From an uncultured Pseudomonadales bacterium (GTDB lineage Bacteria > Patescibacteriota > Microgenomatia > UBA1400 > Chazhemtobacteraceae): a stretch of DNA of 64,000 nucleotides. Made by a program: the position numbers and the translations under genes. The stretch spans positions 441,013 through 505,012 of the forward strand of contig CAYQZQ010000001.1 of assembly GCA_964422035.1 (NCBI GenBank). Reading direction: 5' to 3'. Under the pieces are notes generated by a model that was given only the letters and a program-made list of their open reading frames with translations, made no database searches and was not told the DNA's origin. Shown here piece by piece: positions 1 to 16,880 of this stretch (its first letter is position 1; every line of letters begins with the position of its first letter).

Positions 1-120
1 CTTTTTTTTCAGAACTTTTCATAGCTGGGATTATAGCAAAATGGCTAGCGAAGAAGGAGATATAAAAGCTTATACTACATGTTTGAGAAGCTTTTAAAAC
101 TCTTCTTTATGTTTTTTGTA

Positions 121-565
121 TCAATTAATAGTGTTTTTGAGCCCTGTATCAAAACCTGTTTTTACTACAAATTTAAATTCTTTTTTAGCTTTCGATACAT
201 CTAATTTTCTTTGGGGTTGTCCATCAGGCTTGAATCTTTCCCAAGTTAAATTTTTTCCAAAGCCAGTTAATTTTTTGATTTTTTTCAACCAAGTTTTTAA
301 TGGAGATTTTAAAGTTTGATCCAAGCTTAACTGGTTTAGATTTATTGTATTTTTCGGTTGCAAGAATTATGCCTCTTATCGCATCCTCAACATACAAAAA
401 CTCTATGGTTGGCTTACCGGTTCCCCAAACTACCATCTCATCTTTTCCTTCTTGTTTTGCATCGATGAATTTTTTGATAAGGGCAGGATAACGTGGGATG
501 ATTTAGGATCGAAGTTGTCCCCTGGACCATAAATATTTACGGGTAAAAGAGAAGAAAAGAAATAA
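121..565 (-). pseudogene. Remnant of an NAD-dependent epimerase/dehydratase (GDP-L-fucose synthase-like) C-terminal half, 5'-truncated and frameshifted
   Basis: ORFs 224..436 and 121..363 lie in two frames on the minus strand. Together they spell the conserved C-terminal epimerase motifs: VNIYGPGDNFD..SHVIPALIKKF, then VWGTGKPTIEFLYVEDAIRGI, then (frame switch) TWERFKPDGQPQRKLDVSKAKKE. There is no N-terminal Rossmann region and no start codon upstream; an in-frame stop sits near 570. Confidence 0.55.
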
Positions 566-570
566 AGTCT

Positions 571-963
571 CTATATTTTTATGAGAATAAAATAACTGGC
601 CAGAGAAACTGAAGCCCCCAAGACCGTTCCCCAAATCATGTCCACAATTGTGACTACCAGCGGCCAATCTTTGATGGTAGCTAGATTTGTTAAATCATAA
701 GTCGCATAAGAAATGAGCCCCAGCAAAGCTCCTAGAAAAAGAGCTTGAGCCCAAGAGTTTTTCTCCAATGCCGGTAGAACTGAGAAGACTACTAAACCAA
801 CTACAAATAGTAAGTAAAATAAACCAGCTGCTGTGAAATTAACATTTGTTTTCATCAAGTAACCTAAGTACTGGGCATAGAAATTTTTGGCGATTAGGGT
901 AAGCCAAATAAAGTCGATTGCTAAAAAAACTGGCAAGGTGATTAAATAAGTTTTTAAAAACAT
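571..963 (-). CDS. Small integral membrane protein (4 predicted TM helices), function unknown
   Basis: 130-aa ORF that is hydrophobic throughout and sits directly downstream of the TspO-like gene on the same strand. Confidence 0.5.
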   Translation of the reverse strand: MFLKTYLITLPVFLAIDFIWLTLIAKNFYAQYLGYLMKTNVNFTAAGLFYLLFVVGLVVFSVLPALEKNSWAQALFLGALLGLISYATYDLTNLATIKDWPLVVTIVDMIWGTVLGASVSLASYFILIKI

Positions 964-964
964 A

Positions 965-1360
965 TTAGCGATTTAAACAAGTAATTGTTAACTGCAAAAT
1001 AGTCGCAAAACTAACCCACAACAAATATGGAATTTGAATATACGTAATCCATTTTGCATGAGGATAAATTGCAAGCATCGCCCAAATAAGTGTCCCTAAG
1101 ACAAAAATAATATCAATTGCAGCCAGGAAATTGTTTCTTAACCCAAATTGCAAAGGAGTAAAAGCAAAGTTAAAAATAAGATTAAGGATAAAAGGAAGAG
1201 CAATGATAAAGGCAATTCGTTTTTGTAAAGTTAATTGAAATACTTTAAAAAAAGAGACAGCAATAAAAACATATAGAAAAGTCCATACTGGGCCAAAAAG
1301 CCAAGATGGTGGAGACCATGATGGTCTAATTAATTGTTGGTACCATCCACTACTTTGCAT
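965..1360 (-). CDS. tspO: TspO/MBR family tryptophan-rich sensory protein
   Basis: N-terminus WYQQLIRPSWSPPSWLFGPVWTFLY is the hallmark TspO opening motif. About 5 TM helices, 131 aa. Confidence 0.8.
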   Translation of the reverse strand: MQSSGWYQQLIRPSWSPPSWLFGPVWTFLYVFIAVSFFKVFQLTLQKRIAFIIALPFILNLIFNFAFTPLQFGLRNNFLAAIDIIFVLGTLIWAMLAIYPHAKWITYIQIPYLLWVSFATILQLTITCLNR

Positions 1361-1521
1361 AGGTTATGTTTATTGTAACAAATGGGGAAATACCACGACT
1401 ACTGAATCTTCTTTGGTGAGGCCTACTGTCCCAAATCTCGAACACCTTTTTAACAACATCTTTCAAGTTTACAAGCAACTGAAAAAACTTAGTTTTAACC
1501 AATGCAAGTATTAATTGTTTT

Positions 1522-2190
1522 TTATTCGCGTATAGCAGAAGTACTCAAATGGCTCACTAACATGTGTATTACGTCTTCTTTGCCTTCTTTATAGTAAAAG
1601 AATGGTGTTCTAAAAGAAGCCATTTTGTTTCCACTGTCATCAACTACAACTACTAAATCATGTTGGGAATAATCAAAATCTTTCCATAAGACTAGCTCCA
1701 AGTCGCTGGTTTTATTAGCTGTCCCTACGTCTTTGGCTGAGATAAATTTAAAATTAGGATACTTTTTAGAAGCTGTTTCTACAGGTAAATTAGTAGTAAT
1801 AACTTGTGAAGTTAAGTCATTGGATGTCACTATTTGATAGTGGCTGGCAGCTAAAGTAGTGGCTGTTGAATCTGCTTGAAGTTTTTGAGTACTATTCTGA
1901 ATTTCCTGTGGACGAGCTTTGCGGCCAATAATGGCTGTATCTACTTTATTAAGTCTCAACAACTGCAATGCTTCTTGAGCAGATCCTACTAAGTTAAATT
2001 TAACCTCTTTTGTTGAATTTAACTTATCCACTATTGGCTGCATAGTGGGACAGTAGGCAACTTGAACTTGTGATTCGGCTGCAGTTTGATGAACAGTTGT
2101 TGGAGGCTGAACTGGTTTCTGACTAATAATTGTTGCAGACAAGCCAACAACGACTAGAACTATTAAGATGACGGTTAATCTGCTTTTCAT
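1522..2190 (-). CDS. Exported hypothetical protein with an N-terminal signal anchor (periplasmic binding-protein-like region)
   Basis: 222-aa ORF with an N-terminal hydrophobic signal/anchor. The single Cys lies in CPTMQP. No confident family assignment. Confidence 0.4.
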   Translation of the reverse strand: MKSRLTVILIVLVVVGLSATIISQKPVQPPTTVHQTAAESQVQVAYCPTMQPIVDKLNSTKEVKFNLVGSAQEALQLLRLNKVDTAIIGRKARPQEIQNSTQKLQADSTATTLAASHYQIVTSNDLTSQVITTNLPVETASKKYPNFKFISAKDVGTANKTSDLELVLWKDFDYSQHDLVVVVDDSGNKMASFRTPFFYYKEGKEDVIHMLVSHLSTSAIRE

Positions 2191-2196
2191 ACAAAA

Positions 2197-2490
2197 TTAG
2201 TCTATCATGGAACCCAATAAACAGCTTTGTAAATCTTTGGGGCTGAAGCCAATTAGCTTGATTTTATGCTCATTAACAAAAGATGAGAGCTCTTTTGCTA
2301 GAGACCGAAGATCCTTGTTTTGTAAAAAGTTTTCAATATCTGTAATTGCAGTTTCTGGATGAATGAAAAAATCACCAGTAATTTGAATCGATTCAATGAC
2401 GTAATTGTCCAGTTCTACCTTGAGTCGTAGCATTTTGCCACCTGGAACTTTATAGTTAATTTTTTGCATAATTACCTCCAGTAAGTCCAC
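2197..2490 (-). CDS. Lipoate-protein ligase C-terminal (accessory) domain protein, LplB-like; copy 1
   Basis: 97 aa carrying the motifs KVPGGKMLRLKVELDNYVIESIQITGDFFIHPE and LIGFSPKDL. It is the paralog of ORF 8432..8761 (KVPNGKMLRIRYD..IKIFGDFFIHPEE). Typical of a split LplA C-terminal domain encoded just downstream of the catalytic domain. Confidence 0.75.
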   Translation of the reverse strand: MDLLEVIMQKINYKVPGGKMLRLKVELDNYVIESIQITGDFFIHPETAITDIENFLQNKDLRSLAKELSSFVNEHKIKLIGFSPKDLQSCLLGSMID

Positions 2491-3239
2491 TCTTGAGTTG
2501 TATATTTTTCATTTTTAAGTTTTTTGGCCATCTTTTTCTCATTTGCGCTAGCAGTCTCTGATTTTAAATTAGCCTTAAAAGTAGTGCAAAAACCAGCTTG
2601 AATCGCTTGTTGTAAATTCGAGAAAGTGATATCAGGTAAATGGGTTTGAATGGTGCCGACTCGATCTTCGATTTTTTTTATATTTTTATCAGAAATTTTT
2701 TCAATGGGAATCTTCAGATACTTGACCATTTTATTTACATCAAAATCCAGCAACAGAGTTCCGTGCTGGAGTACGGTTCTGTTTTTCCTGGTTTGAGCAT
2801 TACCTGAAATCTTTTTTCCTTTAAGAGTAATGTCATTGATGCCAGATATGATTGCGTTTAAACCAAGCTGTTGTAAGCCTTCTATAATGCCTTGCTGGAT
2901 GACATGATAAGAATCTTGAATATCAGCCGGGATCATGGGGTGAGATTCTTTGATAATCAAGCTGTAGTTTAACTCCCCTTTGGGATCCTTATAAACAGCG
3001 CCTCCTCCGGTCATGCGCCGGAAAATAGCTACTTTATCCTGTTGGCAGTTATCAAGGTTCACTTCCTGGGCAATAGCTTGGAAATAACCGATTGACACAG
3101 CTGGCTGGTTCCAGCGATAAAAGCGCAACGTGGGTGGAGCTTGGTCTTGGCTGACTGCCCCTAAAACTGCTTCATCCACTGCCATGTGATGGTAGTAATC
3201 ACTGACCTCGTCAGTTGGCAGTAGTCGCCAAGATTTCAT
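2472..3239 (-). CDS. lplA: Lipoate-protein ligase A catalytic domain (split LplA-N); copy 1
   Basis: LRFYRWNQPAVSIGYFQ, RRMTGGGAVYKD and KISGNAQTR are characteristic BPL/LPL catalytic-domain motifs. 255 aa. Confidence 0.85.
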   Translation of the reverse strand: MKSWRLLPTDEVSDYYHHMAVDEAVLGAVSQDQAPPTLRFYRWNQPAVSIGYFQAIAQEVNLDNCQQDKVAIFRRMTGGGAVYKDPKGELNYSLIIKESHPMIPADIQDSYHVIQQGIIEGLQQLGLNAIISGINDITLKGKKISGNAQTRKNRTVLQHGTLLLDFDVNKMVKYLKIPIEKISDKNIKKIEDRVGTIQTHLPDITFSNLQQAIQAGFCTTFKANLKSETASANEKKMAKKLKNEKYTTQEWTYWR

Positions 3240-3241
3240 GC

Positions 3242-4009
3242 TTAAGACTTTTTAACTTCCCTGACTAATAAGTCGGTTAGTGGATGGTCGGGATTAAGAT
3301 CAGACACAGGCATTTGTGTAATAGCCGGTGGATATTTTAGTTCCATTTCTTCTAGTCTAGTGAGTGACTTTTCCAGATCTGGGGGGTTAAAGCCCAACCA
3401 TAACTCATCATCTTGCGAGTTGGCAATACTGCGAGCACCTCCACAAGGGATGGTCATCCAGGGCGATTCGCCTTTAATCACAGCTGCCACAATTTCGCAG
3501 GCTGCATGGCCGTTGAAACTAGATTTAGGCTTATTGCCAGTAGCGTCAAAATAGCCCATTAAGGCTAGGTAACTTTGACAGGAATTAACTAGCAAAATTA
3601 TGGCTTCTGGTTCAAGATCTAGTCGATCAAACTCTTTAAGCGGAGCAAAAACAGCTGCTTCATACTCATTTTGAGGTAAAGCTTCGATTTGTTTTGACAA
3701 TTGCTCAAACCTTTTGGGAGTATAAGCAAAGCCTTTCACCCAGCGATCTTTTAAATCTTCCGGAGGCATAGCAAAACCCATCACATAAGTCCCAACCGTG
3801 CAGGCGTCAATGTTCTCGGTATAGACACCTCTAGTTTTTTCATAAACCGCTACTGTTTTTAATAACTGACACAAAGCACGATTGTTAGCTAAAGGCATGA
3901 TTTCTTTTTCTTTTATCATGTCTTTTGATTTAAGCAGCTTGATTCCGATCGGAGCTCCTTGTGGGCTAAGTAGTTTTTTTGATTTTTCTTGCAGTTGAGT
4001 CAAGTTCAT
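3242..4009 (-). CDS. DUF169-family protein
   Basis: 255-aa soluble protein whose composition and motifs resemble the DUF169 / COG2043 family. It is embedded between the GcvH-like and LplA genes. Confidence 0.55.
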   Translation of the reverse strand: MNLTQLQEKSKKLLSPQGAPIGIKLLKSKDMIKEKEIMPLANNRALCQLLKTVAVYEKTRGVYTENIDACTVGTYVMGFAMPPEDLKDRWVKGFAYTPKRFEQLSKQIEALPQNEYEAAVFAPLKEFDRLDLEPEAIILLVNSCQSYLALMGYFDATGNKPKSSFNGHAACEIVAAVIKGESPWMTIPCGGARSIANSQDDELWLGFNPPDLEKSLTRLEEMELKYPPAITQMPVSDLNPDHPLTDLLVREVKKS

Positions 4010-4032
4010 TTTTTTCCTTGTTAATTTTTAAT

Positions 4033-4419
4033 CTAGGCTTGTTTGCTTTTATCTTGACTCTTTAACAGCTCTTCTTTTTCATTGGGTGCGGTCAGCTCTA
4101 GCTTAGCGATCCAGCCCTTGCCATAGGGATCCTGATTAATTAGTGAAGGCTGATCAAACACTTTTTGATTAACCTCGATTACTTTACCCGAAAGCGGGCT
4201 GGCTAAATGTCCGCTCCATTTGAGTGCTTCTAATGATACATAATTATCTCCCTTTTTTAGTGACTGCCCCTCTTTAGGTAATTTCACAAAAACAAACTCT
4301 TTGACTTTGTCAGCGGCTGGTTTGATTACACCCAAGGTGGCTGTTTTTCCTTGAATATCGACCCAGGTATAATTTGAGTCGTAAAGGAATTTTTCTGGTA
4401 AATTTTCGTTGTTGGTCAT
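4033..4419 (-). CDS. Glycine-cleavage H-protein-like lipoyl carrier (orphan GcvH / LbpA-like)
   Basis: 128 aa with H-protein architecture. The candidate lipoyl-lysine sits in the SLEALKWSGHLASPLSGKVIEVN hairpin region (compare canonical ESVKAASD..SG.V). No gcvT or gcvP is present in the window. Confidence 0.8.
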   Translation of the reverse strand: MTNNENLPEKFLYDSNYTWVDIQGKTATLGVIKPAADKVKEFVFVKLPKEGQSLKKGDNYVSLEALKWSGHLASPLSGKVIEVNQKVFDQPSLINQDPYGKGWIAKLELTAPNEKEELLKSQDKSKQA

Positions 4420-4437
4420 AAGTTGTTTTCAGTAAAT

Positions 4438-5925
4438 TTAATTGTTAATTTGATTTTTTTCTTCTGATTCTTCTTGTTCGACAGTTAGATCTTGGGCTTC
4501 ATTGCCAATCTGAATACCAAATACGGGCAAAATTTTCTTGTGGATAAGGTAAACGACCCCAGTAATGCCAAAAGCTATGCCAAAAACCTTAAACATGCCA
4601 ACTACTTCATTCATTAGTTCTGGTTTTGCTAGCCAAAAATAAGCTAAGGTCAACATAATAATTCCGCCCAGTAGTTTTAAGACACGGCCTTGTTCTTCTT
4701 CAAATTTGCTGGCTTTTAAAGTTAAAAGAATCGTGCCGAAGACAAAGGCTTCGTCCAAAAAGTAAATTAACATATAGAGGGCAAAAAGGGTGGCAAATAA
4801 AACCAAACTAACATTGTTTTCAGACAAAATTGTGGTCCAGATAACTGGAAAGCCGGCAGTGCAAATTAATTCGATAAAAGTGACACCAAAAGCTAAGACA
4901 ATAGTACCAGAAATAAGACCCAGCATTGACTTTTTTTTCATTAACTGGCGAGTATTTTTAAAGATTCCAGGCTTAAAGCGATCAGGAATAGTAAAAGAGA
5001 TACCTTTTTTATACCAAAAGTAGTCTTTAATATTTACTAATCCAAAAATCAAGGCGACTGCAGCCACGGAAAGCTTAATCCATTTCATGTAGCCGATGAT
5101 AGCTAGAGCGTTAAATAAACCTAAAATAAATAGTCCATATACAAGGGTGGCGATTGTAATGAAGGTTAGACCCACAGCAAAAACTTTTTTTCTTGAGCCG
5201 GTATGCAGAACAATACCCAGTAAAAAAGTAATTACCCACAAAGAACAGGGGTTAAACCCATCAACAAAAGCTATCAAGCTGGTCATAACAATTAACGGCA
5301 TATGATCCAAATTTATCTCTCCTAACAGGGGCAATTTGATTGTATGTGCATTTTGAGTGCTTGAGTCGTTTGTTTCTTGCCCCAAAGAGGTGAAGGGAGC
5401 TTCACTTTTTATATCATTGGCTGTATCAGCGGGCTCACTGGTAATTGTCGGAGCTGTGGTTGGTTCACTACTAGCTTCTTCTTCAACTGATTGATTCTCA
5501 TCTGTAGCTACAATACCGGCTTTGACACCCGGATCAATACAGCCTTCTTGCAGACACGATACAATTTTGTTTTCCATATCATCAGCCATGTACTCAGCAA
5601 AACCAACTATTGGCTCGTAGTCGCCAATAAAGGTAGTAGGAACTCCTCTGGCTTGAATGCCGTAAGCCTCAGCCACCTGTTCAAAGACAGCCATGTTTCC
5701 CTGGTTTTGCCAAGTTTCATAGCTTTTAACCTCTAATTGAGAATACTTTTGTTCCATTTCCTCTAGAAAAGGCTTTTCAACTACGCAGTGAGGACAGCCC
5801 TCTCCCCAGAAAAAGTAGACCGTAGTTTTTTCTGCAGCTAAAGCTGGTTGGGCTAAGAATAATAGACAAATAAAGGTAATGACTGCTAGAAAAACTTTCT
5901 TCATATGTTCACTATAACTGATCAA
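4438..5925 (-). CDS. Fusion protein: N-terminal exported thioredoxin-fold domain (CPHC) plus C-terminal CcdA/DsbD-like multi-TM thiol-disulfide transporter domain
   Basis: Signal/anchor, then YFFWGEGCPHCVVEKPFL...GVPTTFIG (thioredoxin fold). An acidic S/T-rich linker follows. Then about 8 TM helices, with a Cys in the FVDGFNPCSLWV membrane segment. Confidence 0.65.
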   Translation of the reverse strand: MISYSEHMKKVFLAVITFICLLFLAQPALAAEKTTVYFFWGEGCPHCVVEKPFLEEMEQKYSQLEVKSYETWQNQGNMAVFEQVAEAYGIQARGVPTTFIGDYEPIVGFAEYMADDMENKIVSCLQEGCIDPGVKAGIVATDENQSVEEEASSEPTTAPTITSEPADTANDIKSEAPFTSLGQETNDSSTQNAHTIKLPLLGEINLDHMPLIVMTSLIAFVDGFNPCSLWVITFLLGIVLHTGSRKKVFAVGLTFITIATLVYGLFILGLFNALAIIGYMKWIKLSVAAVALIFGLVNIKDYFWYKKGISFTIPDRFKPGIFKNTRQLMKKKSMLGLISGTIVLAFGVTFIELICTAGFPVIWTTILSENNVSLVLFATLFALYMLIYFLDEAFVFGTILLTLKASKFEEEQGRVLKLLGGIIMLTLAYFWLAKPELMNEVVGMFKVFGIAFGITGVVYLIHKKILPVFGIQIGNEAQDLTVEQEESEEKNQINN

Positions 5926-5936
5926 TGTTATGGAAG

Positions 5937-5981
5937 TATTTTACCAATATTAAGGGAATGTTAAGATTTGACAAATAAGTT
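5937..5981. promoter_or_regulatory. Conserved ~45-nt motif, copy 1 (TATTTTaCCAATaTTAAGGGAaTGTTAAG..TTGAcaACAAaT), in the divergent promoter region between the thioredoxin-CcdA operon and padR
   Basis: Near-identical to 13357..13401 (about 38 of 45 nt match). Contains the direct repeat TGTTAAG-N4-TGTTAAG (first half-site degenerate in this copy: TaTTAAG). Lies 12 to 56 nt upstream of the minus-strand start at 5925 and overlaps the 5' end of padR. Confidence 0.45.
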
Positions 5982-6392
5982 TATATATGTAACGATGTTA
6001 TGTATGAAAGACAAAATAAGTTGTGAGCCCAAAGGCAGATATCCGGAAAAACGCTGGGTCCAGTTTTTAATTTTAAGAGTTCTTTATGAAAAACCCTCTT
6101 ACGGATACAAAATCGTTGAATCAATTGAAAAGTTAACTGAGGGCAGACATCAAATTAAGCTTGGTTCTATCTATACCTTACCTTATTGCGTCGCATGGAG
6201 AAGCGTGAGCTGTTAACCTCTCAGTGGAAAGAAAGTAAAAAGAATCCGGACAAGAAAATCTACCAAGTTACGAAAAAGGGAGAAGATCTTTTAAAGCAGT
6301 GGTTGGAGGTTGTGATTGAAAGAAGAAAAATGATGACCAAAATGGTCGAATTTTATAAAAAACATTTTAAGGAGGAAGCCAATGAAAATTGA
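5968..6392 (+). pseudogene. PadR-family transcriptional regulator interrupted by a frameshift near 6180 (authentic frameshift or sequencing error)
   Basis: Frame-1 ORF ends ..GYKIVESIEKLTEGRHQIKLGSIYTL then runs out of frame. The frame-3 ORF continues LRRMEKRELLTSQWKESKKNPDKKIYQVTKKGEDLL. Joined, they give the canonical PadR wHTH pattern (G.LY.LL.RLEK.GLL.S.W......R.YY.LT..G). Confidence 0.6.
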
Positions 6393-6687
6393 CAACATCT
6401 TATCTTTGCAAAATTTTTCTAAAAAAGGACCGGTTAAAACCGATATTATAAAATCTAACAAGTTTAACGTGGTGACGGTTTGTCTTGAGGAGAACCAAGC
6501 AATACCGCCCCATCCCGAGCCTTATGCAGTTTTCTTTTTGGTACTGAAAGGCAAGGGTGTATTTACTAAAGGCAAGGAAAATTTTGAACTTGAACAAGGC
6601 TCAGAACTTTTTGTTGAAAATAACGAACTAAGAGGGATTAAAGCTTTAGAAAAGTTGATTATTTTAGGGATTCAAGATGGACATTAA
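6382..6687 (+). CDS. Cupin-domain protein
   Basis: 101 aa with a two-His cupin-like core (PPHPEPYAVFFLVLKGKG...ELFVENNE). Strong SD (AAGGAGG) upstream. Confidence 0.55.
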   Translation: MKIDNILSLQNFSKKGPVKTDIIKSNKFNVVTVCLEENQAIPPHPEPYAVFFLVLKGKGVFTKGKENFELEQGSELFVENNELRGIKALEKLIILGIQDGH

Positions 6688-7624
6688 TCAACAAAACACA
6701 AAAGCGATCGAGGTAATTGAGCTTAGTAAAAAATTTAGACAACTAACAGCTGTTGACGATATTTCTTTTGAGGTCAAAAAGGGAGAGGTCTTTGGATTTT
6801 TGGGCCCTAATGGCGCCGGTAAGACAACCACTGTAAGAGTGTTAACCGGATTGACTAAGCCAACCGAAGGTCAGGCAAAAATTTTTGATCATGATATTGA
6901 AAAAACAGATATCGAAGCTAAAAAATTAATTGGTATGGTGCCTGAAACATCTAATGTATACGATGAATTATCGGCTTGGGAGAATCTGATTTTTACGGCC
7001 GATCTTTATCAGCTGAAAAAAAGTCAAGCTGAGAAAAGAGCCCAAGATTTACTCAAAACCTTTGAGCTTGTTAAGCGCCAAGATGACAAAGTTAAGGGTT
7101 TTTCCAAGGGCATGAAAAGAAGGCTAACTCTGGCCATGGGTTTGATCAATAGTCCGCAATTATTGTTTTTAGATGAGCCAACTTCGGGCTTGGATGTGGA
7201 GAGTTCGCTTATTATCAAGGAGATGATTAAAAATTTAAGCCAACAACAGATCACTATTTTTCTCACAACCCATGACATTAAAGAAGCCAGTAGAAGTTGT
7301 GATCGGGTGGCTATTATTAATCATGGCAAAATTGCTGCGATTGATACCCCGGAGAAATTAAAAACAACCATTGAGAGTGTCCAGTCGATTGAAGTAGTTT
7401 TTAATCAGACGGTCTCTTTGACTAAAATAAGTTCTTTGAAAAAACATGATTTTATCAATCAAGTTCAAAAAAAGGCAGACAAGTATAAATTATTTACTGA
7501 TAAGCCAGAAAGAGCTTTAAAAAAGCTGTGGGATTTTAGTTTAACAAACAAGTTAAAAATCACCAGTCTAAACACTCTCGGTCCTGATTTAGAAGAAGTT
7601 TTTATCAAATTAACCAAAAAATGA
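6677..7624 (+). CDS. ABC transporter ATP-binding protein (ABC-2 exporter type)
   Basis: Walker A GPNGAGKTTT, ABC signature FSKGMKRRLTLA, Walker B LLFLDEPTSGLD. Confidence 0.9.
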   Translation: MDINQQNTKAIEVIELSKKFRQLTAVDDISFEVKKGEVFGFLGPNGAGKTTTVRVLTGLTKPTEGQAKIFDHDIEKTDIEAKKLIGMVPETSNVYDELSAWENLIFTADLYQLKKSQAEKRAQDLLKTFELVKRQDDKVKGFSKGMKRRLTLAMGLINSPQLLFLDEPTSGLDVESSLIIKEMIKNLSQQQITIFLTTHDIKEASRSCDRVAIINHGKIAAIDTPEKLKTTIESVQSIEVVFNQTVSLTKISSLKKHDFINQVQKKADKYKLFTDKPERALKKLWDFSLTNKLKITSLNTLGPDLEEVFIKLTKK

Positions 7625-8367
7625 TGAATAAGAATCTCACCAACAACCTGAGAGCGGCTTGGTCAATTACCAAAAAGGATATCATGATTTACTATTTGAA
7701 ACCTGGAACCTTGATGTTTGGTGTTATGTTTCCTTTGTTTATGTTTCTTTCTTTTGCTGTTGGCAGAAATGTGCCGACCTCATCTTTAATTCCAGGTTTA
7801 ATTTCTCTGACAGTCTTATTTTCGGCTTCATCGATTGGACCAGTGGCGATTCCAGTAGAAAGAAGGGTTAAAACTTTTGAAAGGCTGATCGCTGCTCCGA
7901 TATCTTTTTATGCTGTTATTTTGGGAAAAGCTTTAGGGGGAGTTCTGTTTAGCGTAGCTATTAGCTTAATCGCTTTATTGGCAGCTTGGTTGTTTCTGGG
8001 AGTAATTTTGTTTAGTCCAGCCACCTTACTCTTTGCCTTAATTTTTGCTTCATTATGCTTTTCTTTGCTGGGAATCATGTTTGCTATGTTTCCTACGGAA
8101 AATCCAGGAAACATTATGATCATGCTTAATTTTATCCGTATGCCGCTAATGTTTATTAGTGGAATTTTTATCCCAATCAAAACGCTGCCTTTATGGGCAC
8201 AAACAATCTCTTACTTTTCACCTCTAACTTATGCTAATGATTTGTTTGGTTTTGGAATTGAAGGCAAAATTAATTTAGGTTTGTTTACCAACCTGATGGC
8301 TCTACTGCTTTTTGCCGGCGTTTTTCTTTTTGTTGGTCTTCGATTGGACAAGAAATTTAGGGAATAG
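7621..8367 (+). CDS. ABC-2 family transporter permease
   Basis: 248 aa with 6 TM helices. Translationally coupled (ATGA overlap) to the ATPase. Confidence 0.75.
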   Translation: MMNKNLTNNLRAAWSITKKDIMIYYLKPGTLMFGVMFPLFMFLSFAVGRNVPTSSLIPGLISLTVLFSASSIGPVAIPVERRVKTFERLIAAPISFYAVILGKALGGVLFSVAISLIALLAAWLFLGVILFSPATLLFALIFASLCFSLLGIMFAMFPTENPGNIMIMLNFIRMPLMFISGIFIPIKTLPLWAQTISYFSPLTYANDLFGFGIEGKINLGLFTNLMALLLFAGVFLFVGLRLDKKFRE

Positions 8368-8431
8368 TCTTTAGTCAAACATTAAAAGACAAAAAGATTA
8401 GTCAAGACACATCAAGTCATCAAGATTTACC

Positions 8432-8761
8432 TTAAATAAGTGCATTTTCTATATCAATTGGGGTAAAACCAATCAAGGTTATGTTTTTTTTATCAACAAA
8501 CTTAGTTAAGTTTTTAGCTACTTGATTGATTTTCTTGCCAATTAAAAACTGCTCTATGTCTAAAATTGACTCTTCCGGGTGTATAAAAAAATCACCGAAA
8601 ATTTTAATGTTCACGATAGTATCGTCATTAGAGTCATATCTGATTCTAAGCATCTTCCCATTTGGAACTTTATAGACTATATTTTTTTTCATAAAGCTAT
8701 TTCTAACGCCAATAATTCCATTTATCGCTTGTATATTTTTCTTTGTATAATTTTTCGGCAT
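8432..8761 (-). CDS. Lipoate-protein ligase C-terminal (accessory) domain protein; copy 2
   Basis: Paralog of 2197..2490: KVPNGKMLRIRYDSNDDTIVNIKIFGDFFIHPEE...LIGFTPIDI. Confidence 0.75.
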   Translation of the reverse strand: MPKNYTKKNIQAINGIIGVRNSFMKKNIVYKVPNGKMLRIRYDSNDDTIVNIKIFGDFFIHPEESILDIEQFLIGKKINQVAKNLTKFVDKKNITLIGFTPIDIENALI

Positions 8762-9512
8762 GCTTTAATTCTTCAAAAGTCAGTTCTTTAACTTCAGTTT
8801 TTATATTAAACTTTTTTTCAAAACCATAAATAAGCGCCTTTTCTATTTCTTTATTTGCAATGTTTTTTCCTAACTCGTTTTTTAACGAGGTTACTCGCTC
8901 TTTGGCCGTTTTTATCATTTTATCTTTAATTTTTTCGTCAGGGACATTTAGCACGGAAAACATTTTTTCAAGATCCAGATCCAAAAGTATCGTTCCGTGC
9001 TGTAAGACCACGCCTGACTGTCTGGTTTGGGCATTACCGGATATTTTTTTATTACCGACAATAATATCATTTATGGGTTTGAATTCCGCTTTTATGCCAA
9101 GAGAAAGTAGGGCTTCAACTATAGCACCGCAGATTTCTTTGTAAGATCCAACTATATCAGAAGAAACATCTTTTTCAGAAATGGTGAGAGAATAAGTTAG
9201 TTCATGTTCATGTAAAACTGCGCCTCCGCCAGTATACCTTCTAACTACGTCTATATTTTTAGACTGAGCCTTGATAAGATCTATTTCATCTTCCAGATTT
9301 TGAAAAAAACCAATTGTTACACAGGATGGTTGCCACTTAAAAAATCGCAGAGTGTTTGGAACTGTACCTTTTATGCGCGCTGTAAGAATGGCTTCATCAT
9401 TAGCCATCTGTTTTGCACCGCTGTCCGCAGTTGTTTTTATAAGTCTCCAGGTGTTCATATTTTTATTTACACATAGTGTCAGCTTGATACGAGCTCCTAA
9501 CCAAAGGTCCAA
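8703..9512 (-). CDS. lplA: Lipoate-protein ligase A catalytic domain; copy 2
   Basis: LRFFKWQPSCVTIGFFQ, RRYTGGGAVLHEHE, KISGNAQTR. Overlaps the 3' end of lipA. Confidence 0.85.
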   Translation of the reverse strand: MDLWLGARIKLTLCVNKNMNTWRLIKTTADSGAKQMANDEAILTARIKGTVPNTLRFFKWQPSCVTIGFFQNLEDEIDLIKAQSKNIDVVRRYTGGGAVLHEHELTYSLTISEKDVSSDIVGSYKEICGAIVEALLSLGIKAEFKPINDIIVGNKKISGNAQTRQSGVVLQHGTILLDLDLEKMFSVLNVPDEKIKDKMIKTAKERVTSLKNELGKNIANKEIEKALIYGFEKKFNIKTEVKELTFEELKHAEKLYKEKYTSDKWNYWR

Positions 9513-10308
9513 CTGAAATTTGTTTGATGCCTATTTTTTTGGCAATCGCCCTAATTTTTTTAAACTCTTCTGGTTTATAATATTTCTTTACCGAAAAATG
9601 TACTGAGCTTGGCTGTAAATACTGACCTATTGTGACTATATCACAACTGCTTTTTTTCAAATCCGTAAGTGTTTCAATTATTTGCTCATTTGTTTCACCT
9701 AAACCAAGCATGATGCCGGATTTGATTTTTATTCTCGGCTCAAATTCTTTTGTTTTTCTTAGAAGTTCTAGAGACAATCTGTAATCACCTCTAGGTCTTA
9801 CTAGGGTAAAAACATCTTCAACAGCCTCTAAGTTATGGTTAATCACATCAGGTCCGGATTTTATGATCTTTTGAAGCGCTGTCCAATTACCGTTTAGATC
9901 AGAGATTAACACTTCAATTGTACAACTTGGATTTATTTTTTTTATCGCCTTGATTGTTTTTATAAATTGGTCAGCGCCACTGTCTGCCAAATCATCTCTG
10001 GTAACGCAGGTTATCACCACATAATCCAACTTCATCTTTTCAGTAGCAATAGCAATCCTTTTTGGTTCTTGGGCATCAACAGTTTTTGGCCAACCTGTTT
10101 TGATATTACAGTAACGACAATTTCTGGTACAAACGTCACCTAAAATCATAAAAGTAGCTGTGCCGGCAGCAAAACATTCATAACGGTTGGGACAATTTGC
10201 TTCCAGACAAACCGTAGTTAGTTTATATTCATTTATAATATCTAAAGTCTTCAGATATGCTTTTTTATCGCATTGCTTAATTTTAATCCAATTGGGCAAG
10301 TTATCCAT
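9463..10308 (-). CDS. lipA: Lipoyl synthase (radical SAM)
   Basis: Auxiliary cluster CLEANCPNRYEC and radical-SAM cluster CTRNCRYC. 281 aa. Confidence 0.9.
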   Translation of the reverse strand: MDNLPNWIKIKQCDKKAYLKTLDIINEYKLTTVCLEANCPNRYECFAAGTATFMILGDVCTRNCRYCNIKTGWPKTVDAQEPKRIAIATEKMKLDYVVITCVTRDDLADSGADQFIKTIKAIKKINPSCTIEVLISDLNGNWTALQKIIKSGPDVINHNLEAVEDVFTLVRPRGDYRLSLELLRKTKEFEPRIKIKSGIMLGLGETNEQIIETLTDLKKSSCDIVTIGQYLQPSSVHFSVKKYYKPEEFKKIRAIAKKIGIKQISVGPLVRSSYQADTMCK

Positions 10309-10309
10309 A

Positions 10310-10585
10310 TTAAGAAAAAACAGTATTTTGCTCTATTAAAGTGATCAAATCTGCATAAGAGATAAGTTTAACACCGGCCTTATTATCAACCCCTCTTAAT
10401 TTTAGGTCTTGATCTATGACTGAAATACTTGCACCCTTTTCTTTAATTGCGCCAATAAGATTATTTTTAGGATTATGACAAACTAAAACGCCATCTTGAA
10501 TTAAAACGGTAATATCCCCCTTTTTAATAAAGCGCAATATTTGCTTGTGCCGACTGAGATCGTTTGATTTGATAATAAATAACAT
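10310..10585 (-). CDS. TusB/DsrH-family sulfur-relay protein
   Basis: 91 aa with DsrH-like topology. It is third in a tusD-tusC-tusB-like gene order. Confidence 0.6.
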   Translation of the reverse strand: MLFIIKSNDLSRHKQILRFIKKGDITVLIQDGVLVCHNPKNNLIGAIKEKGASISVIDQDLKLRGVDNKAGVKLISYADLITLIEQNTVFS

Positions 10586-10591
10586 ATGTGT

Positions 10592-10972
10592 TTAAAAATT
10601 AATTATTACACCCACTCCTCTGACGAGTTTGTTTATCTCTTTGTCAGCTAAAATTTCAACCTGTTGGATTTCCTGTATTTGAATGTTCCTCTCAGTTAAG
10701 CTGTTGGCATCGGCTGCAACTTTCAAACCAAATTCGGTAGCATTGGCAAAACCTTCTTTTAAGCTTCCCGCCCCAATTAGATCAGGATTTTGTTTTTTTA
10801 GCAGGGAAAATACACCATCATCGGAAAAAACTAAGAAAGTATCTAAATCCATTCCGGCAAAAGCAATACCGGCTCTGACAGCCTCAGCCGGGAAAACCGT
10901 GCCAAATGGCGGATTATTAACGATTATTAGTACTTTTTTTGTCATATGTTCATAGATTGATAAATTTGTCAC
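10592..10972 (-). CDS. TusC/DsrF-family sulfur-relay protein (probable true start at M of MTKKVLIIVNN, ~10945)
   Basis: DsrE/DsrF-like fold (VLIIVNNPPFG...) lacking the active-site cysteine, as in TusC/DsrF. Confidence 0.6.
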   Translation of the reverse strand: MTNLSIYEHMTKKVLIIVNNPPFGTVFPAEAVRAGIAFAGMDLDTFLVFSDDGVFSLLKKQNPDLIGAGSLKEGFANATEFGLKVAADANSLTERNIQIQEIQQVEILADKEINKLVRGVGVIINF

Positions 10973-11294
10973 ACTCCTTGACCATGTCAGCCAAACCAGG
11001 CAAACCTTCTAACTCTCCCTGAGGTAAAAGCTGGTCTTTTTTTATCCCACGGAATTGGATACAAACACCGCAAATCTTGATTTCTGCTCCCAAGTCAGCC
11101 AGTTCTGCCATTCTTTGATATAAATTTCTCTCTTTGGCTGAATTGATATCTTTATTGACGGCAATGACACTATCAACATAAAGAAATATTTTCACTTGGT
11201 GTTTTTTAGCTATCGCGGCTTTACTAAGGTAATAAAGCGTGTCAATGTCTTGATATGTGTATGGTGGCTTGGTGACTAATATGCCTAATTTCAT
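10950..11294 (-). CDS. TusD/DsrE-family sulfur-relay protein (active-site Cys present)
   Basis: 114 aa, KLGILVTKPPY N-terminus. The conserved Cys sits in an EIKICGVCIQFRGI context like TusD Cys78 / DsrE. Confidence 0.7.
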   Translation of the reverse strand: MKLGILVTKPPYTYQDIDTLYYLSKAAIAKKHQVKIFLYVDSVIAVNKDINSAKERNLYQRMAELADLGAEIKICGVCIQFRGIKKDQLLPQGELEGLPGLADMVKECDKFINL

Positions 11295-11312
11295 ATTTTA
11301 TTTGTGAATTTA

Positions 11313-12356
11313 TTAATTGTTTTTTATAAACATAAAATAAGCTAATGTCCAACCACCTGAAATGATGAATATACCCGCAAGAATACTGGAGATTGCTAAT
11401 TGAGGCACGCCGCTGAGAATATGTCCTATGTTACAGCCCCCGGCTATTATCGCACCAAAACCCATTAAGGATCCTCCGGCCAGAGATTGTAATCCAACTT
11501 TAGCTTTTGGCAAACGAATTTTAAATTCATTACCCAATTTAGAGCCAATGAATGAACCTGCAACTAGACCAATAACTTGGAATGATTCCCATGTTAAAAA
11601 GTTCTTTCTTTGTAAAATTGATTTAAGAATTGTTTCAAAGCCTGTGGTTATTCCCAAGGGATAATTACGCCCGGATAGGGATGAAAAAATAAATGCCAAT
11701 ATACCAATAAAGCCAATTGCAAGTCCGGTTAGTTTCCACGACCAACCCATGTTAAAAAGTTTTCCAGTCCAGTTTATCTTGTTACCCTGCTTCAGCTTAT
11801 TGTCCTGGATGCTAATTCCGCTATCTTTTTTCTTAAGGCCGCAAAATAACAACACAAAAATTATGCCGGCGAAAATTAAAACAAAAAACTCAGCAGGAAT
11901 TCCTGATATCGAACTGAGCGTTAAAGGACCCTTATTTAAAGTTTGAACTCGGGTGACAAAATCGGATAAAAATCCATCTTTGGCTAGATATGCGGCCATA
12001 ATAAATCCAAACAAAGCTATTAAAGAACTGATCATGCCCTCACCAACGCGGTAAGCTGTTCCGCTGGCACATCCTCCTGTTAAGACCATCCCGGCTCCGA
12101 ACATATAGCTACCTAAAGGTATGGCAAGTAGATAAAGAGGCTTGGGATTAAGCTCCACAATGCCAAGAGTGCTTATAATATAAAAACCAAGTAACTGAAC
12201 TACAATCGCTAGTCCTACTGCTTTAAGTAAAGTGAAATCCTTGAATAGGAGTGGATCACGAAAAGCCGAGTTCATGCAAAATCTCCCCCTTTGCAATGCA
12301 AGGCCGAAAAGAAGCCCCACTAATAATCCGCTAATTATGGAGAAGACACTAAGCAT
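11313..12356 (-). CDS. YeeE/YedE-family sulfur-compound (thiosulfate-type) transporter
   Basis: Two-repeat membrane protein with the conserved Cys motifs GRFCMNSA, GGCASGTAY and AGGCNIGHILSG. Confidence 0.8.
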   Translation of the reverse strand: MLSVFSIISGLLVGLLFGLALQRGRFCMNSAFRDPLLFKDFTLLKAVGLAIVVQLLGFYIISTLGIVELNPKPLYLLAIPLGSYMFGAGMVLTGGCASGTAYRVGEGMISSLIALFGFIMAAYLAKDGFLSDFVTRVQTLNKGPLTLSSISGIPAEFFVLIFAGIIFVLLFCGLKKKDSGISIQDNKLKQGNKINWTGKLFNMGWSWKLTGLAIGFIGILAFIFSSLSGRNYPLGITTGFETILKSILQRKNFLTWESFQVIGLVAGSFIGSKLGNEFKIRLPKAKVGLQSLAGGSLMGFGAIIAGGCNIGHILSGVPQLAISSILAGIFIISGGWTLAYFMFIKNN

Positions 12357-12377
12357 ATTTAGATTATTTGATTAGAT

Positions 12378-12953
12378 TTATAGTTTTGATGCCGGATTAA
12401 GGCAGTTGTTCTCCACGCAATAAATGATTTTACTTTCCATGTCGTCGGCCATGGATTCGGCAAAACCGACAATTGGTTCATAATTACCGATGAAAGTAGT
12501 GGGAACTCCTCTGGCTTGAATGCCATAAGCTTGAGCCACCTGCTGAAACAGTTCTAAGTTTTCTTTGTTTTTCCATGTCTCATACATCTTTACCTCTAAC
12601 TCAGGATACTTCTGTTCCATTTCCTCTAAAAAAGGCTTTTCAACTGCACAATGAGGGCAGCCATCTCCCCAAAAAAAGTAGATTACTACAGACTTTTCTG
12701 ACACTTCTTCGCTGTCTTCTATATTTGTATTGCCTTCTTCGTTTTCAACCACTGCTTCCCCTTTTACCGATTGCTTTTCTTCCTCTATTTGAGTGGTAGT
12801 ATTTTCTTCTTCCTGATTTTCAGTGACTGTGTTTTCGAGCGAAGAAATTTCATTGTTAGTGTTTTTATTACTACCGATTGTTTGAGTAAAAAGAAATAGC
12901 CCTAAGCCCAGTGTTAGTACTATTGTCAATATTGATATTTGTTTTTTATTCAT
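12378..12953 (-). CDS. Secreted thioredoxin-fold protein (CPHC); paralog of the N-terminal domain of 4438..5925
   Basis: Signal peptide, an N/E/T-rich low-complexity linker, then IYFFWGDGCPHCAVEKPFLEEMEQKY...GVPTTFIG. About 85% nucleotide identity to 5600..5850 over ~230 nt. Confidence 0.7.
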   Translation of the reverse strand: MNKKQISILTIVLTLGLGLFLFTQTIGSNKNTNNEISSLENTVTENQEEENTTTQIEEEKQSVKGEAVVENEEGNTNIEDSEEVSEKSVVIYFFWGDGCPHCAVEKPFLEEMEQKYPELEVKMYETWKNKENLELFQQVAQAYGIQARGVPTTFIGNYEPIVGFAESMADDMESKIIYCVENNCLNPASKL

Positions 12954-13021
12954 AATTTTACTTTTATTTAGTTTAATTTAATAATAAATGCAGTTGGATG
13001 CGTTGATAGTTAATATTCTAA

Positions 13022-13276
13022 CTACTTAACTTGAATTAGAAGCCGGTGGTCAGGACCGGACTCTATTTTCTCTACTTTAAGCATTTTATGTCCTTCTTTT
13101 TCACAGTTACGCGGGATTCTCTCTAAAGATAAAGGATAATCAGTTAAAACCTCCAATATCTCTCCTGAGCTCATTTTTTTAATTTTTTTTCTTGTTCTTA
13201 TGTCCGGATAAGGACAAATCTCACCTCTGACATCAATGCTCTCTGTTGCCCGAATCTTTTTGTTTTCTTCTGTCAT
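13022..13276 (-). CDS. tusA: TusA-like sulfurtransferase (SirA/YedF/YeeD family)
   Basis: Conserved CPxP motif (IDVRGEICPYPDIRTRKKI). 84 aa. Confidence 0.8.
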   Translation of the reverse strand: MTEENKKIRATESIDVRGEICPYPDIRTRKKIKKMSSGEILEVLTDYPLSLERIPRNCEKEGHKMLKVEKIESGPDHRLLIQVK

Positions 13277-13356
13277 ATAAACTTTCTTTTAGAATTATTT
13301 TGGAAATGTAAAGGTTAATTATGTATCCATATTATAATCAATCAATGTTGTGAGAC

Positions 13357-13401
13357 TATTTTGCCAATGTTAAGGGAGTGTTAAGTTGAGGACAAGTTAA
13401 G
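13357..13401. promoter_or_regulatory. Conserved ~45-nt motif, copy 2, upstream of the tusA-trx-yeeE-tusDCB-lipA-lplAB operon
   Basis: TATTTTgCCAATgTTAAGGGAgTGTTAAGtTGAggACAAgTTAAG. Matches 5937..5981 and lies 80 to 125 nt upstream of the tusA start. Confidence 0.45.
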
Positions 13402-13431
13402 CTGAAATCATGTCAAGCGCTGGTTTATTTT

Positions 13432-14583
13432 TCATTTCAAAGGCAGCCTAACTTTAAAAGTAGTGCCTTTTCCCAACTCACTTTTGACTTGAATTTCTCC
13501 TTTGTGAGCTTTAATAATTTTTTGAACAATGGTTAAACCAATTCCAATTCCCTCATGGCTGCGCGATTTATCGACTTGAAAAAATCTTTCAAAGATTAGA
13601 GGCAGATCTTCTTGTTTAATGCCCATCCCTTCATCGATAACTTTAAAGCACAACTCTTGCTGATCGGATTGATAGGTTTTGAGAGTGATGGTGCTGCCTG
13701 CAGATGAGTACTTAATAGCATTATCTAAAAGATTAGAGATCACCTGCTGTATCTTTTGCTCATCTAATTTAATCTTTGGCAAGTTGGCTTCCAGTTCGAG
13801 CTTTAACTCAATATTTTTATTTTCTAGTTTTTTTTGAAATGATTGGGCTGCTGTCTTGATTAAATCATTAATGTTTGCGTAAGTTTGATTAAGTTTTGGA
13901 TCCTCACTTTCCAGAATAGCTAATTTTTTCAAGTCTTTAATTAGCTGAACAACTCGCTTAGTTTCTTCTTTAATTAATTTAATGGTTTCTCGTTGTTTAT
14001 CTGGCTCACTGATCACGCCGTCTGAGAGTGCTTCTAGATAGCCATATATGTTAGTCAGAGGGGTTGAAAGCTCGTGAGACATGTTGGCAACTAGTTCTTT
14101 ACGCAGAGTTTCAGTTTTTTCTAAGCTTTGATACATCTCATTGAGTGCTTTAATCAACTCGTCTGTTTCATCGTAAGTTTTGGTCTTGATTCGCACTTGA
14201 TAGTTGCCGGTACTAGCCCGTTTGGCTGAAGCGATAATTTTTTGAAAAGGTTTTAAGAAATTGTGGCTAAAAAGATAACCTAACAACAAGGCAATTAATA
14301 AACCAAAAAGGCTAGCAATTAAAAGAGATTGATTAATTGATTGGAGAAACCGCTGCCCGTTTTGGCTGCGCATACACTCAGGTAAGCCGTTTGTTGAAAG
14401 TTCGCAAAACTGCTGAAAGTGTTGGTTAACAGCAAACTTAGTGACTAAAGTCACAAAACCTACCGTAATCACTAAATTGATTACAAAAAGCAAAATAAGC
14501 TTCCATTTTAATCCTAATTTTATTTTCATAAGAACAGATGAGTTAGTCGACCAATTTATAACCAACCCCTTTGATTGTAGCAA
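13432..14583 (-). CDS. Sensor histidine kinase (2 TM, HAMP, HisKA, HATPase_c)
   Basis: H-box MSHELSTPL, N-box LLDNAIKYS, G-boxes DEGMGI and GIGLTIV. Confidence 0.85.
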   Translation of the reverse strand: MLQSKGLVINWSTNSSVLMKIKLGLKWKLILLFVINLVITVGFVTLVTKFAVNQHFQQFCELSTNGLPECMRSQNGQRFLQSINQSLLIASLFGLLIALLLGYLFSHNFLKPFQKIIASAKRASTGNYQVRIKTKTYDETDELIKALNEMYQSLEKTETLRKELVANMSHELSTPLTNIYGYLEALSDGVISEPDKQRETIKLIKEETKRVVQLIKDLKKLAILESEDPKLNQTYANINDLIKTAAQSFQKKLENKNIELKLELEANLPKIKLDEQKIQQVISNLLDNAIKYSSAGSTITLKTYQSDQQELCFKVIDEGMGIKQEDLPLIFERFFQVDKSRSHEGIGIGLTIVQKIIKAHKGEIQVKSELGKGTTFKVRLPLK

Positions 14584-15220
14584 TTAACTCTTGGCTGTGA
14601 TCTTTTAACTTTTTTCTTAAATTTGAAATATGAACATCAATGGTGCGATCATAAACTTCTGCAGCTTCATTGGCATAGACTATATCTAAGAGTTCAGTTC
14701 GTGAATACACTACTCCCGGACGCTTGATCAAGGCTAGTAGCAGATCAAATTCTCTGAGAGTGAGATTAATTTCCTGCCCATCTTGCTTAACTTCAAAGCG
14801 CTGGGGATCAACTTTAAGACTTTTTACTTGGTAAATTTGTGAGTCAATGTCACTTTCTTGGAAACGCCTTAGGACTGTTTTAACTCTAGCCACTAGCTCT
14901 TGGGGGCTAAAGGGTTTAGTCACATAATCATCAGCTCCTAACTCCAAGCCAATGATTTTGTCTGTTTCTTCATCTTTTGAAGATAAGATGATGATAGGAG
15001 TTTTATTGTTTTGACGGATTTTTTTTAAAACAGAGATGCCGTCCTTTTCAGGTATCATTAAATCCAAAATAACAAGGTCTGGCTTTTTGTTTTGAAAAAT
15101 TTCCAACCCACGCAATCCGTCCTGAGCTGTAAAAATTGTAAAGTTTTCTTTTTCAAGATAAAGCTCCAATAGACGAATAATTTTAGACTCATCTTCGATA
15201 ATAAGAATACGTTTATTCAC
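14543..15220 (-). CDS. OmpR-family response regulator
   Basis: Receiver domain (ILIIEDE..DLVILDLMIP) plus a winged-helix trans_reg_C domain (YSRTELLD..VDVHISNLRKKL). Confidence 0.9.
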   Translation of the reverse strand: MNKRILIIEDESKIIRLLELYLEKENFTIFTAQDGLRGLEIFQNKKPDLVILDLMIPEKDGISVLKKIRQNNKTPIIILSSKDEETDKIIGLELGADDYVTKPFSPQELVARVKTVLRRFQESDIDSQIYQVKSLKVDPQRFEVKQDGQEINLTLREFDLLLALIKRPGVVYSRTELLDIVYANEAAEVYDRTIDVHISNLRKKLKDHSQELIATIKGVGYKLVD

Positions 15221-15417
15221 GGTTAATATATTTTACAAATTTAGAATGAATTTAATTAAAAATTACAAATAGAAAAATTTAAAAAGAATAAAAGCGACCA
15301 CTACAGTTAATAAGACAATTGAAGATAAATATTTTTTTACTCATTGTTTTGTTATGCTCGCCTTATTTAATAGTTATTGACTAATGTTTTCTAAATATAA
15401 ATTTTCGTAAATTAGAC

Positions 15418-16581: not shown

Positions 16582-16593
16582 ATTATTCTTTTC

Positions 16594-16854: not shown

Positions 16855-16880
16855 AATATTTTTCTAATTTGTAATAGTAA

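Follow-up and report, generated by a model that had tools for sequence, protein, structure and literature searches.

In Thermoplasma acidophilum, lipoate:protein ligase consists of a catalytic subunit, LplA, and a separate small subunit, LplB, encoded by adjacent genes (PDB entries 2ARS and 3R07). The small domain is required for formation of the acyl-adenylate (PMC6067878), and the requirement for LplB is established for the T. acidophilum enzyme only. Ligases can also be combined with lipoyl synthases so that free octanoate is used; in the Lpl/LipA and sLpl(AB)-LipS1/LipS2 assemblies octanoate is attached and sulfur is then inserted, and a bipartite LplAB of archaeal type is among the enzymes described (Tanabe et al. 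2023, PMC10332631). Staphylococcus aureus has two lipoate ligases, LplA1 and LplA2, one of them beside a dedicated GcvH-like carrier (PMC4518038, PMC12440151), and this GcvH-L carrier serves redox defence, not glycine cleavage (PMC12440151). In the LipM/LipL/LplJ relay of Bacillus subtilis, GcvH is the first acceptor, with separate enzymes for synthesis and salvage. Here we describe two split ligase pairs, LplA1/LplB1 (pair 1) and LplA2/LplB2 (pair 2), in a 64,000-nucleotide stretch (the window) of contig CAYQZQ010000001.1, positions 441,013 to 505,012, from an uncultured bacterium of the GTDB lineage Patescibacteriota (assembly GCA_964422035.1). On balance we favour the reading that two routes, lipoate salvage by pair 1 and octanoate attachment followed by LipA by pair 2, load the same single GcvH-like carrier rather than two acceptors. 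The locus shares the separate subunits of the T. acidophilum system but differs in holding two pairs in one bacterial locus, and in place of a component of a 2-oxoacid dehydrogenase or of glycine cleavage its presumed acceptor is an orphan GcvH-like carrier from a redox-type cassette.

A preliminary description of the window had proposed two LplA catalytic domains, each followed by a separate LplA C-terminal domain protein, and the family matches agree. Pfam LplA-B_cat (PF21948) matched LplA1 at E 3.7e-57 and LplA2 at E 6.4e-54, while Lip_prot_lig_C (PF10437) matched LplB1 at 26.0 bits and LplB2 at 27.5 bits, both above the gathering score of 24. The NCBIfam LplB equivalog gave 68.4 bits for LplB1 and 64.6 for LplB2, the latter just under the cut-off of 65. 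The best solved-structure relative of both catalytic subunits was T. acidophilum LplA (2ARS, E 3e-33 for LplA1; E 1.4e-34 for LplA2), and the C-terminal ends of both coincide with the end of that protein, with no fused C-terminal domain. All four open reading frames (ORFs) were found on the minus strand at the locations given earlier, and the peptides quoted then are present in their translations. The extents did not hold, since the coordinates were those of maximal ORFs; to judge by homologues and public gene calls, the genes are shorter and free of overlap (Table 1). LplA2 at 8703-9458 is identical to a public call of 251 amino acids (P0121), LplB1 is called as 90 amino acids in Logan contig L001, and homologues of LplB2 have 89-90. 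The gap between LplA and LplB is 2 nt in pair 1 and 10 nt in pair 2. An identity as LipM, LipL or LipB was rejected, as neither LplA matched a LipM or LipB model at E <= 0.01 and LplB adjoins both; the LipL model matched LplA1 weakly, at E 3.5e-4. The B. subtilis LipM and LipL, in contrast, work without an accessory domain by thioester or amidotransfer chemistry. The S. aureus ligases also differ, being fused single-chain salvage enzymes of which neither is coupled to lipA.

The two pairs are paralogous at the protein level, as had been proposed, with 43% identity between LplA1 and LplA2 over 256 amino acids (E 5e-65) and 49% between LplB1 and LplB2 over 84 (E 2e-28). These values, together with the placement of the two LplA in separate clades, led us to reject a recent duplication. 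An alignment of 271 LplA sequences to E. coli LplA was built; residue numbers are those of the E. coli protein, whose reference sequence was checked against 1X2G. R70, G73-75, N121, D122, K133 and H149 are invariant in both window LplA and in both clades; the catalytic lysine (K133) and the RRxxGGG loop are present in 54 of 54 sequences of the clade of LplA1 (K-type), 124 of 124 of the clade of LplA2 (type 2) and both window proteins. This lysine, the loop and H149 are conserved in T. acidophilum LplA as well. The preliminary description had held that near-identity of the pairs, or inactivating substitutions in one of them, would speak against two distinct systems. Pairwise alignment and the tree showed no near-identity but a deep split, and the catalytic lysine and loop are intact in both LplA. 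Both window LplA are under purifying selection, the ratio of nonsynonymous to synonymous substitution rates (dN/dS) against nearest relatives being 0.12 for LplA1 (against comparison locus L138) and 0.11-0.12 for LplA2. The ratio was 0.21 for LplB1; synonymous sites of LplB2 were too saturated for an estimate, and its ORF is intact. A pseudogene or inactive copy was rejected on the intact catalytic residues and the dN/dS of about 0.12, and both pairs are predicted to be working ligases. They would act as bipartite, ATP-dependent lipoate:protein ligases in which LplA catalyses and LplB is needed to form the acyl-adenylate.

A neighbour-joining tree of the 271 LplA sequences contains a 140|131 split (bootstrap 68) that puts LplA1 and LplA2 on opposite sides. 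All 54 carriers of the K-type signature GGGAVYK, LplA1 included, form one cluster (bootstrap about 50), and the type 2 clade shares a 2-residue deletion after His79. At position 79, all 54 K-type sequences have Lys, and His is found in 124 of 124 of type 2 and in 91 of 93 others. K-type further differs from type 2 in having Asn rather than Thr at position 85, and Met, Leu or Val rather than Tyr at position 71. The T. acidophilum enzyme belongs to neither clade, and differs from LplA1 at position 79 and from LplA2 in lacking the deletion. Structure 3A7A of E. coli LplA shows His79 in contact with the lipoyl moiety, and LipB conserves this residue (PMC9307952). Both clades occur in Patescibacteria and DPANN archaea, and closer relatives of each window LplA abound in other phyla, ahead of its window neighbour; the named close relatives are 'Patescibacteria group bacterium', Minisyncoccales and Moranbacteria, followed by DPANN archaea. 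To judge from the tree, the two LplA are old, divergent lineages and not the outcome of local duplication.

Octanoate may be a poor fit for the Lys79 pocket of LplA1; in hosts that lack a synthase, its attachment would lead nowhere. The same substitution could be taken to mean that LplA1 is no lipoate ligase at all and handles another acyl group, or is an amidotransferase or a regulator, because His79 is conserved from LipB to LplA and replaced in all 54 K-type sequences, and because of the weak LipL match. We consider such altered chemistry highly improbable. Every catalytic and adenylate-loop residue is kept, LipM and LipB models gave no match, most K-type loci keep an LplB partner, and in many GcvH cassettes the K-type enzyme is the sole ligase, so that the carrier would otherwise go unmodified. 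For the K-type LplA of L009 and L137, no LplB was detectable within 10 kb.

The clades differ in their association with lipA. We gathered contexts by looking up exact proteins, by scanning genomes from a DUF169 seed and by scanning metagenomes from an LplA seed. lipA immediately precedes type 2 LplA in 10 of 10 distinct contexts (the window, L002, L007, L008, L025, L117, L129, L132, L139 and L140), whereas K-type LplA is beside lipA in none of nine (the window, L003, L005, L009, L016, L024, L136, L137 and L138). An exact test puts this at about 1 in 92,000, a naive figure because the contexts are not phylogenetically independent. The metagenome scan with the LplA alignment returned 80 loci, all His-type and about equidistant from both window LplA, and added no K-type context; among other His-type LplA from metagenomes, lipA was within 2.5 kb in 31 of 79. 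Separately, a third LplA-like group (265-300 amino acids, ~40% identical to type 2) was found directly after lipA in L012 (2925-3827), L013 (12080-12877) and L015 (11633-12442). LplB was not detectable in those three loci, and the group may consist of LipM-like derivatives.

The exchange of one type for the other can be followed between L003 and L007, which share 80-84% DNA identity through the genes for the membrane thioredoxin-like protein TrxTM, GcvH, the exported thioredoxin-like protein (Trx) and DUF169, and again in LplB. Between these parts, L007 encodes a flavoprotein, LipA and a type 2 LplA (7621-10762), while the counterpart in L003 (9600-10000) has an 87-nt flavoprotein remnant and then a K-type LplA. 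The K-type LplA therefore replaces a synthase-plus-ligase unit and presumably works with the same LplB lineage, and lipA has been lost together with the type 2 LplA where the K-type takes over. Co-divergence of LplB with its LplA was not seen, as the swap kept the same LplB and the LplB of L003 is nearer to LplB2.

These patterns are consistent with a division of labour by small molecule. In the pair 2 route, LplA2/LplB2 would attach scavenged octanoate, or possibly lipoate, to the carrier, and LipA would then insert two sulfurs into the carrier-bound octanoyl group. In the pair 1 route, LplA1/LplB1 would attach preformed, scavenged lipoate. Pair 2 has ligase and LipA together, as in the described ligase-plus-LipA combinations that let free octanoate be used (PMC10332631); our check for an octanoyltransferase, LipB or LipM, covered the 64 kb. 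The locus is unlike sLpl(AB)-LipS1/LipS2 in its canonical LipA, in its split rather than fused ligase and in having no sHdr genes, and TusBCD-like genes precede lipA in the window and in L139. The preliminary description had suggested two specificities, for free lipoate versus octanoate or for different acceptor proteins. That the systems have diverged is upheld, and the lipA linkage and the His79-to-Lys change point indirectly to lipoate versus octanoate; the acceptor half of the suggestion is not supported, as described below.

Several observations weigh against this reading. The characterised bipartite and sLpl(AB) ligases take both lipoate and octanoate (PMC10332631, PMC6067878), so that any split in specificity could be slight or non-existent. 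The K-type forms a single clade of modest bootstrap support, and the lipA pattern could stem from one ancestral event rather than repeated selection, or lipA could lie elsewhere in genomes that have only the K-type. LplB does not sort by LplA type, and we assume from their neighbouring positions that each LplB partners its LplA. Finally, our view is of 64 kb of a 725-kb contig, and other acceptors may exist.

The question of acceptors bears on the single carrier gene. If the pairs had different acceptors, LplA1/LplB1 would serve the adjacent GcvH-like protein and LplA2/LplB2 a lipoyl protein encoded outside the window, such as a second GcvH or an E2 subunit, an arrangement that would resemble S. 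aureus LplA1/LplA2 or the LbpA-specific sLpl(AB). Paralogous ligases specific for their acceptors have precedents (PMC6067878, PMC12440151, PMC10332631), about 4 kb of plus-strand genes separate pair 2 from gcvH, and the view is restricted to 64 kb of the genome. Both LplA types, however, occur in operons with the same GcvH family; in L002, L007, L008, L025 and L132 a type 2 ligase shares an operon with that family and with TrxTM. The window holds a single GcvH homologue, and no other lipoyl-domain protein was found among the ORFs scanned. The occurrence of one GcvH family with both ligase types, and of one carrier in the window, argues against different acceptors, which we regard as improbable. 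To our knowledge, Patescibacteria usually lack 2-oxoacid dehydrogenase and glycine-cleavage complexes, which we count against this alternative as well. Under the two-route reading, this GcvH would be used by both pairs.

Comparison with L138 (GCA_963991715.1), the closest collinear relative, shows how pair 2 sits in the locus. The two are 77-81% identical in DNA on both sides of a 7.4-kb block (by blastn), and window positions 5906-13308 correspond to 35 nt in L138. The LipA-LplA2-LplB2 part of the block is 76-81% identical to L002, L139 and L140, where the LplA after lipA is 84-88% identical to LplA2, and the window LipA is 75% identical to that of L002. On the other side, the LplB of L138 is 70% identical to LplB1. 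The window is made of a salvage-type cassette, as in L138, and a synthesis-type module, as in L002, L139 and L140. Because L138 lacks the synthesis-coupled block, the locus combines two alternative versions of one cassette. No repeats were found flanking the block.

Such an indel would also arise if the block had been gained by gene transfer, or lost in the relative, and had simply supplied a second general-purpose ligase with full functional overlap. The use of both substrates by known bipartite and sLpl(AB) ligases, and the service of LplB orthologues with either LplA type, fit that redundancy. It accords less well with purifying selection on both LplA, with pocket differences fixed across 54 and 124 clusters, with the strict lipA linkage (0/9 vs 10/10) and with the loss of lipA along with type 2 where the K-type replaces it, and we judge redundancy unlikely, if less so than separate acceptors.

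Table 1. Features of the ligase locus in the window, with coordinates in window positions.
Feature	Coordinates	Strand	Remarks
LplB1	2197..2469	-	small accessory subunit; ORF reaches 2490, likely start M8
LplA1	2472..3239	-	bipartite lipoate:protein ligase catalytic subunit, K-type clade (Lys at E. coli position 79); 255 aa
DUF169 protein	3242..4009	-	Pfam DUF169 E 1.2e-26; conserved optional cassette member
GcvH-like lipoyl carrier	4033..4419	-	lipoyl-lysine in motif YVSLEALKWSGH; presumed acceptor of both ligases
TrxTM	4438..5904	-	signal peptide, exported thioredoxin-like domain (CPHC), polytopic membrane domain with two invariant membrane cysteines
7.4-kb block	5906..13308	.	PadR/cupin/ABC on plus strand and TusA to LplB2 on minus strand; absent from L138
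LplB2	8432..8692 (approx.)	-	small accessory subunit; ORF reaches 8761
LplA2	8703..9458	-	catalytic subunit, type 2 clade: His79 kept, 2-residue deletion after His79; 251 aa
LipA, canonical lipoyl synthase	9463..10308	-	4 nt upstream of LplA2; TIGR00510 lipA 350 bits vs 310; NF004019 389 bits
DsrE (10950-11294), DsrF (10592-10972), DsrH (10310-10585)	10310..11294	-	TusBCD-like sulfur-relay subunits; Pfam DsrE, DsrH
YeeE/TsuA-like thiosulfate/sulfur transporter	11313..12356	-	Pfam Sulf_transp E 1.3e-82; NCBIfam TsuA 281.7 bits, below cut-off 400
Exported thioredoxin-like protein	12378..12953	-	paralogue of TrxTM N-terminal domain (72% identity)
TusA/YedF-like sulfur carrier	13022..13276	-	first gene of its string; Pfam TusA E 6.8e-22; NCBIfam YedF 70.9 bits vs 79
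Histidine kinase and response regulator	13432..15220	-	upstream of cassette; 82-86% identical to response regulator and histidine kinase directly upstream of TrxTM in L138

Pair 1 ends a minus-strand string of genes in the order TrxTM, GcvH-like carrier, DUF169 protein, LplA1 and LplB1, and pair 2 ends a second in the order TusA, exported thioredoxin-like protein, YeeE, DsrE/F/H, LipA, LplA2 and LplB2, with gaps of 1-25 nt between most gene pairs of either string. This gene order confirmed that pair 2 adjoins lipA and the sulfur relay and that pair 1 adjoins DUF169 and the GcvH-like gene. The carrier matched Pfam GCV_H (PF01597) at E 1.2e-33, was above the cut-off of NF002270 (118.2 vs 117) and was below that of TIGR00527 (96 vs 115.85). 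Its lysine motif has the form YVS(L/V)EA(L/V/M)KWSGH, which is common to all cassette GcvH proteins. Neither gcvT nor gcvP is present in the 64-kb window, and no second GcvH, CoA-disulfide-reductase-like (CoADR-like) flavoprotein or Lpd was found there.

TrxTM lies directly upstream of GcvH in at least 10 loci. It gave only weak matches to Trx families, and its membrane domain matched no Pfam family even at E 10. All 10 of 10 homologues share six invariant cysteines (C37, C40, C117, C122, C220 and C348), among them the two of the membrane domain, C220 in DGFNPC and C348 in ELxCTAGxP. In its logic the protein resembles DsbD/CcdA. The DUF169 protein, which stands between GcvH and LplA in L003, L005, L007, L138 and others, shows the strongest constraint in the cassette (dN/dS 0.04), and its residues C47, C70, H168, C171 and C189 are invariant. 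Its AlphaFold2 model (pLDDT 93) had no PDB match by sequence or Foldseek. The same DUF169 subfamily occurs in Thermoproteota and Thermococcus without the GcvH cassette.

Across loci the cassette recurs as TrxTM, GcvH-like carrier, (exported thioredoxin), (DUF169), (CoADR/Nox-like flavoprotein), (LipA), LplA and LplB, with optional members in brackets, in Patescibacteria and in Woese-, Aenigmat-, Nano- and Pacearchaeota. The cassette flavoprotein has a single cysteine (YSPCALPY) and is CoA-disulfide-reductase-like, scoring under the family cut-offs. TrxTM, DUF169 and this flavoprotein, found in relatives, take the place of the S. aureus operon partners SirTM, a macrodomain protein and a monooxygenase. 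In L005 a radical-SAM gene lies near an Lpd-like gene; it was rejected as a lipoyl synthase, being MoaA/SPASM-like. A 222-amino-acid membrane-anchored protein is encoded at 1522-2190, 6 nt downstream of LplB1 and in the same position in L138 (58% identity); it has no family match.

In the second string, the LipS2 model scored 39 bits on the window LipA against a cut-off of 270, and LipA is the only radical-SAM gene here. Matches of DsrE/F/H to NCBIfam TusB, TusC and TusD were below cut-off. TusA, the YeeE/TsuA-like transporter and DsrE/F/H may be devoted to providing sulfur, either to LipA or to the lipoyl carrier, to judge from their position and family matches. DsrH again stands directly before lipA in L139 (L139 3-299), and relatives have the CoADR-like flavoprotein in that position. 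Orthologues of the exported thioredoxin-like protein adjoin GcvH in L002, L003 and L007.

The response regulator and histidine kinase upstream of the cassette recur there in L003 and L007, and this conserved arrangement suggests two-component control of the carrier operon. An ArsP_1-type permease, response regulator and histidine kinase together occupy 13432-16581, an arrangement kept in L138, L003 and L007; two further genes of L138, for a 170-amino-acid protein and a DsbD_2 protein, are missing from the window at 15258-15363. Within the 7.4-kb block, PadR is split by a frameshift into overlapping ORFs (5968-6216 and 6186-6392, covering profile positions 1-36 and 39-74), and the same split is found in L001. 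The first 18 kb have a GC content of 0.34-0.38 and the rest of the window 0.40-0.45. Up to about 18 kb the cumulative GC skew stays level or declines, and from there on it climbs steadily; an HNH endonuclease gene lies at 19631-20218. No Rfam family was found in window positions 1-18000. The remaining window encodes bacterial housekeeping functions, including aminoacyl-tRNA synthetases, Lon, Lgt, RelA, RecJ and SecDF.

The composition of the cassette led us to a broader and more tentative proposal, namely that both ligases supply a redox system of ultrasmall bacteria and archaea that is built on a lipoyl protein and has not been described so far. It would reduce the cell envelope in the manner of DsbD/CcdA, with lipoate in the role of thioredoxin. 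The GcvH-like carrier would be a cytoplasmic dithiol kept reduced by the CoADR-like flavoprotein, DUF169 or both, and electrons would pass through the two-cysteine membrane domain to the fused exported thioredoxin and to the second exported thioredoxin-like protein. The K-type ligase, with His79 changed to Lys, would then specialise in the salvage of lipoate, having evolved to suit hosts from which lipA had been lost. The parts of the cassette agree with a relay from the lipoyl carrier to the cell envelope, and the idea is speculative. In the searchable literature we found no description of a cassette of TrxTM, GcvH, DUF169 and CoADR-like flavoprotein or of such a relay, no paper combining DUF169 with lipoate, and none on lipoate metabolism in Patescibacteria or DPANN. 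Paralogous lipoate ligases are already known; new here are the split form and the coupling of one pair to a synthase.

Discussions of lipoate usually centre on 2-oxoacid dehydrogenases and glycine cleavage, for which it is the cofactor. The organism studied here, whose genome is very small, appears to devote about 20 genes to charging and maintaining a single orphan lipoyl carrier, with a salvage and a synthesis-coupled route both retained. We propose residue 79 of the pocket as a marker of specificity in split ligases, Lys going with the absence of lipA and His with its presence. The cassette is conserved across Patescibacteria and DPANN archaea, and if it is a lipoyl-based envelope redox relay, it would represent a second non-classical role of protein-bound lipoate, after sHdr-LbpA sulfur oxidation.

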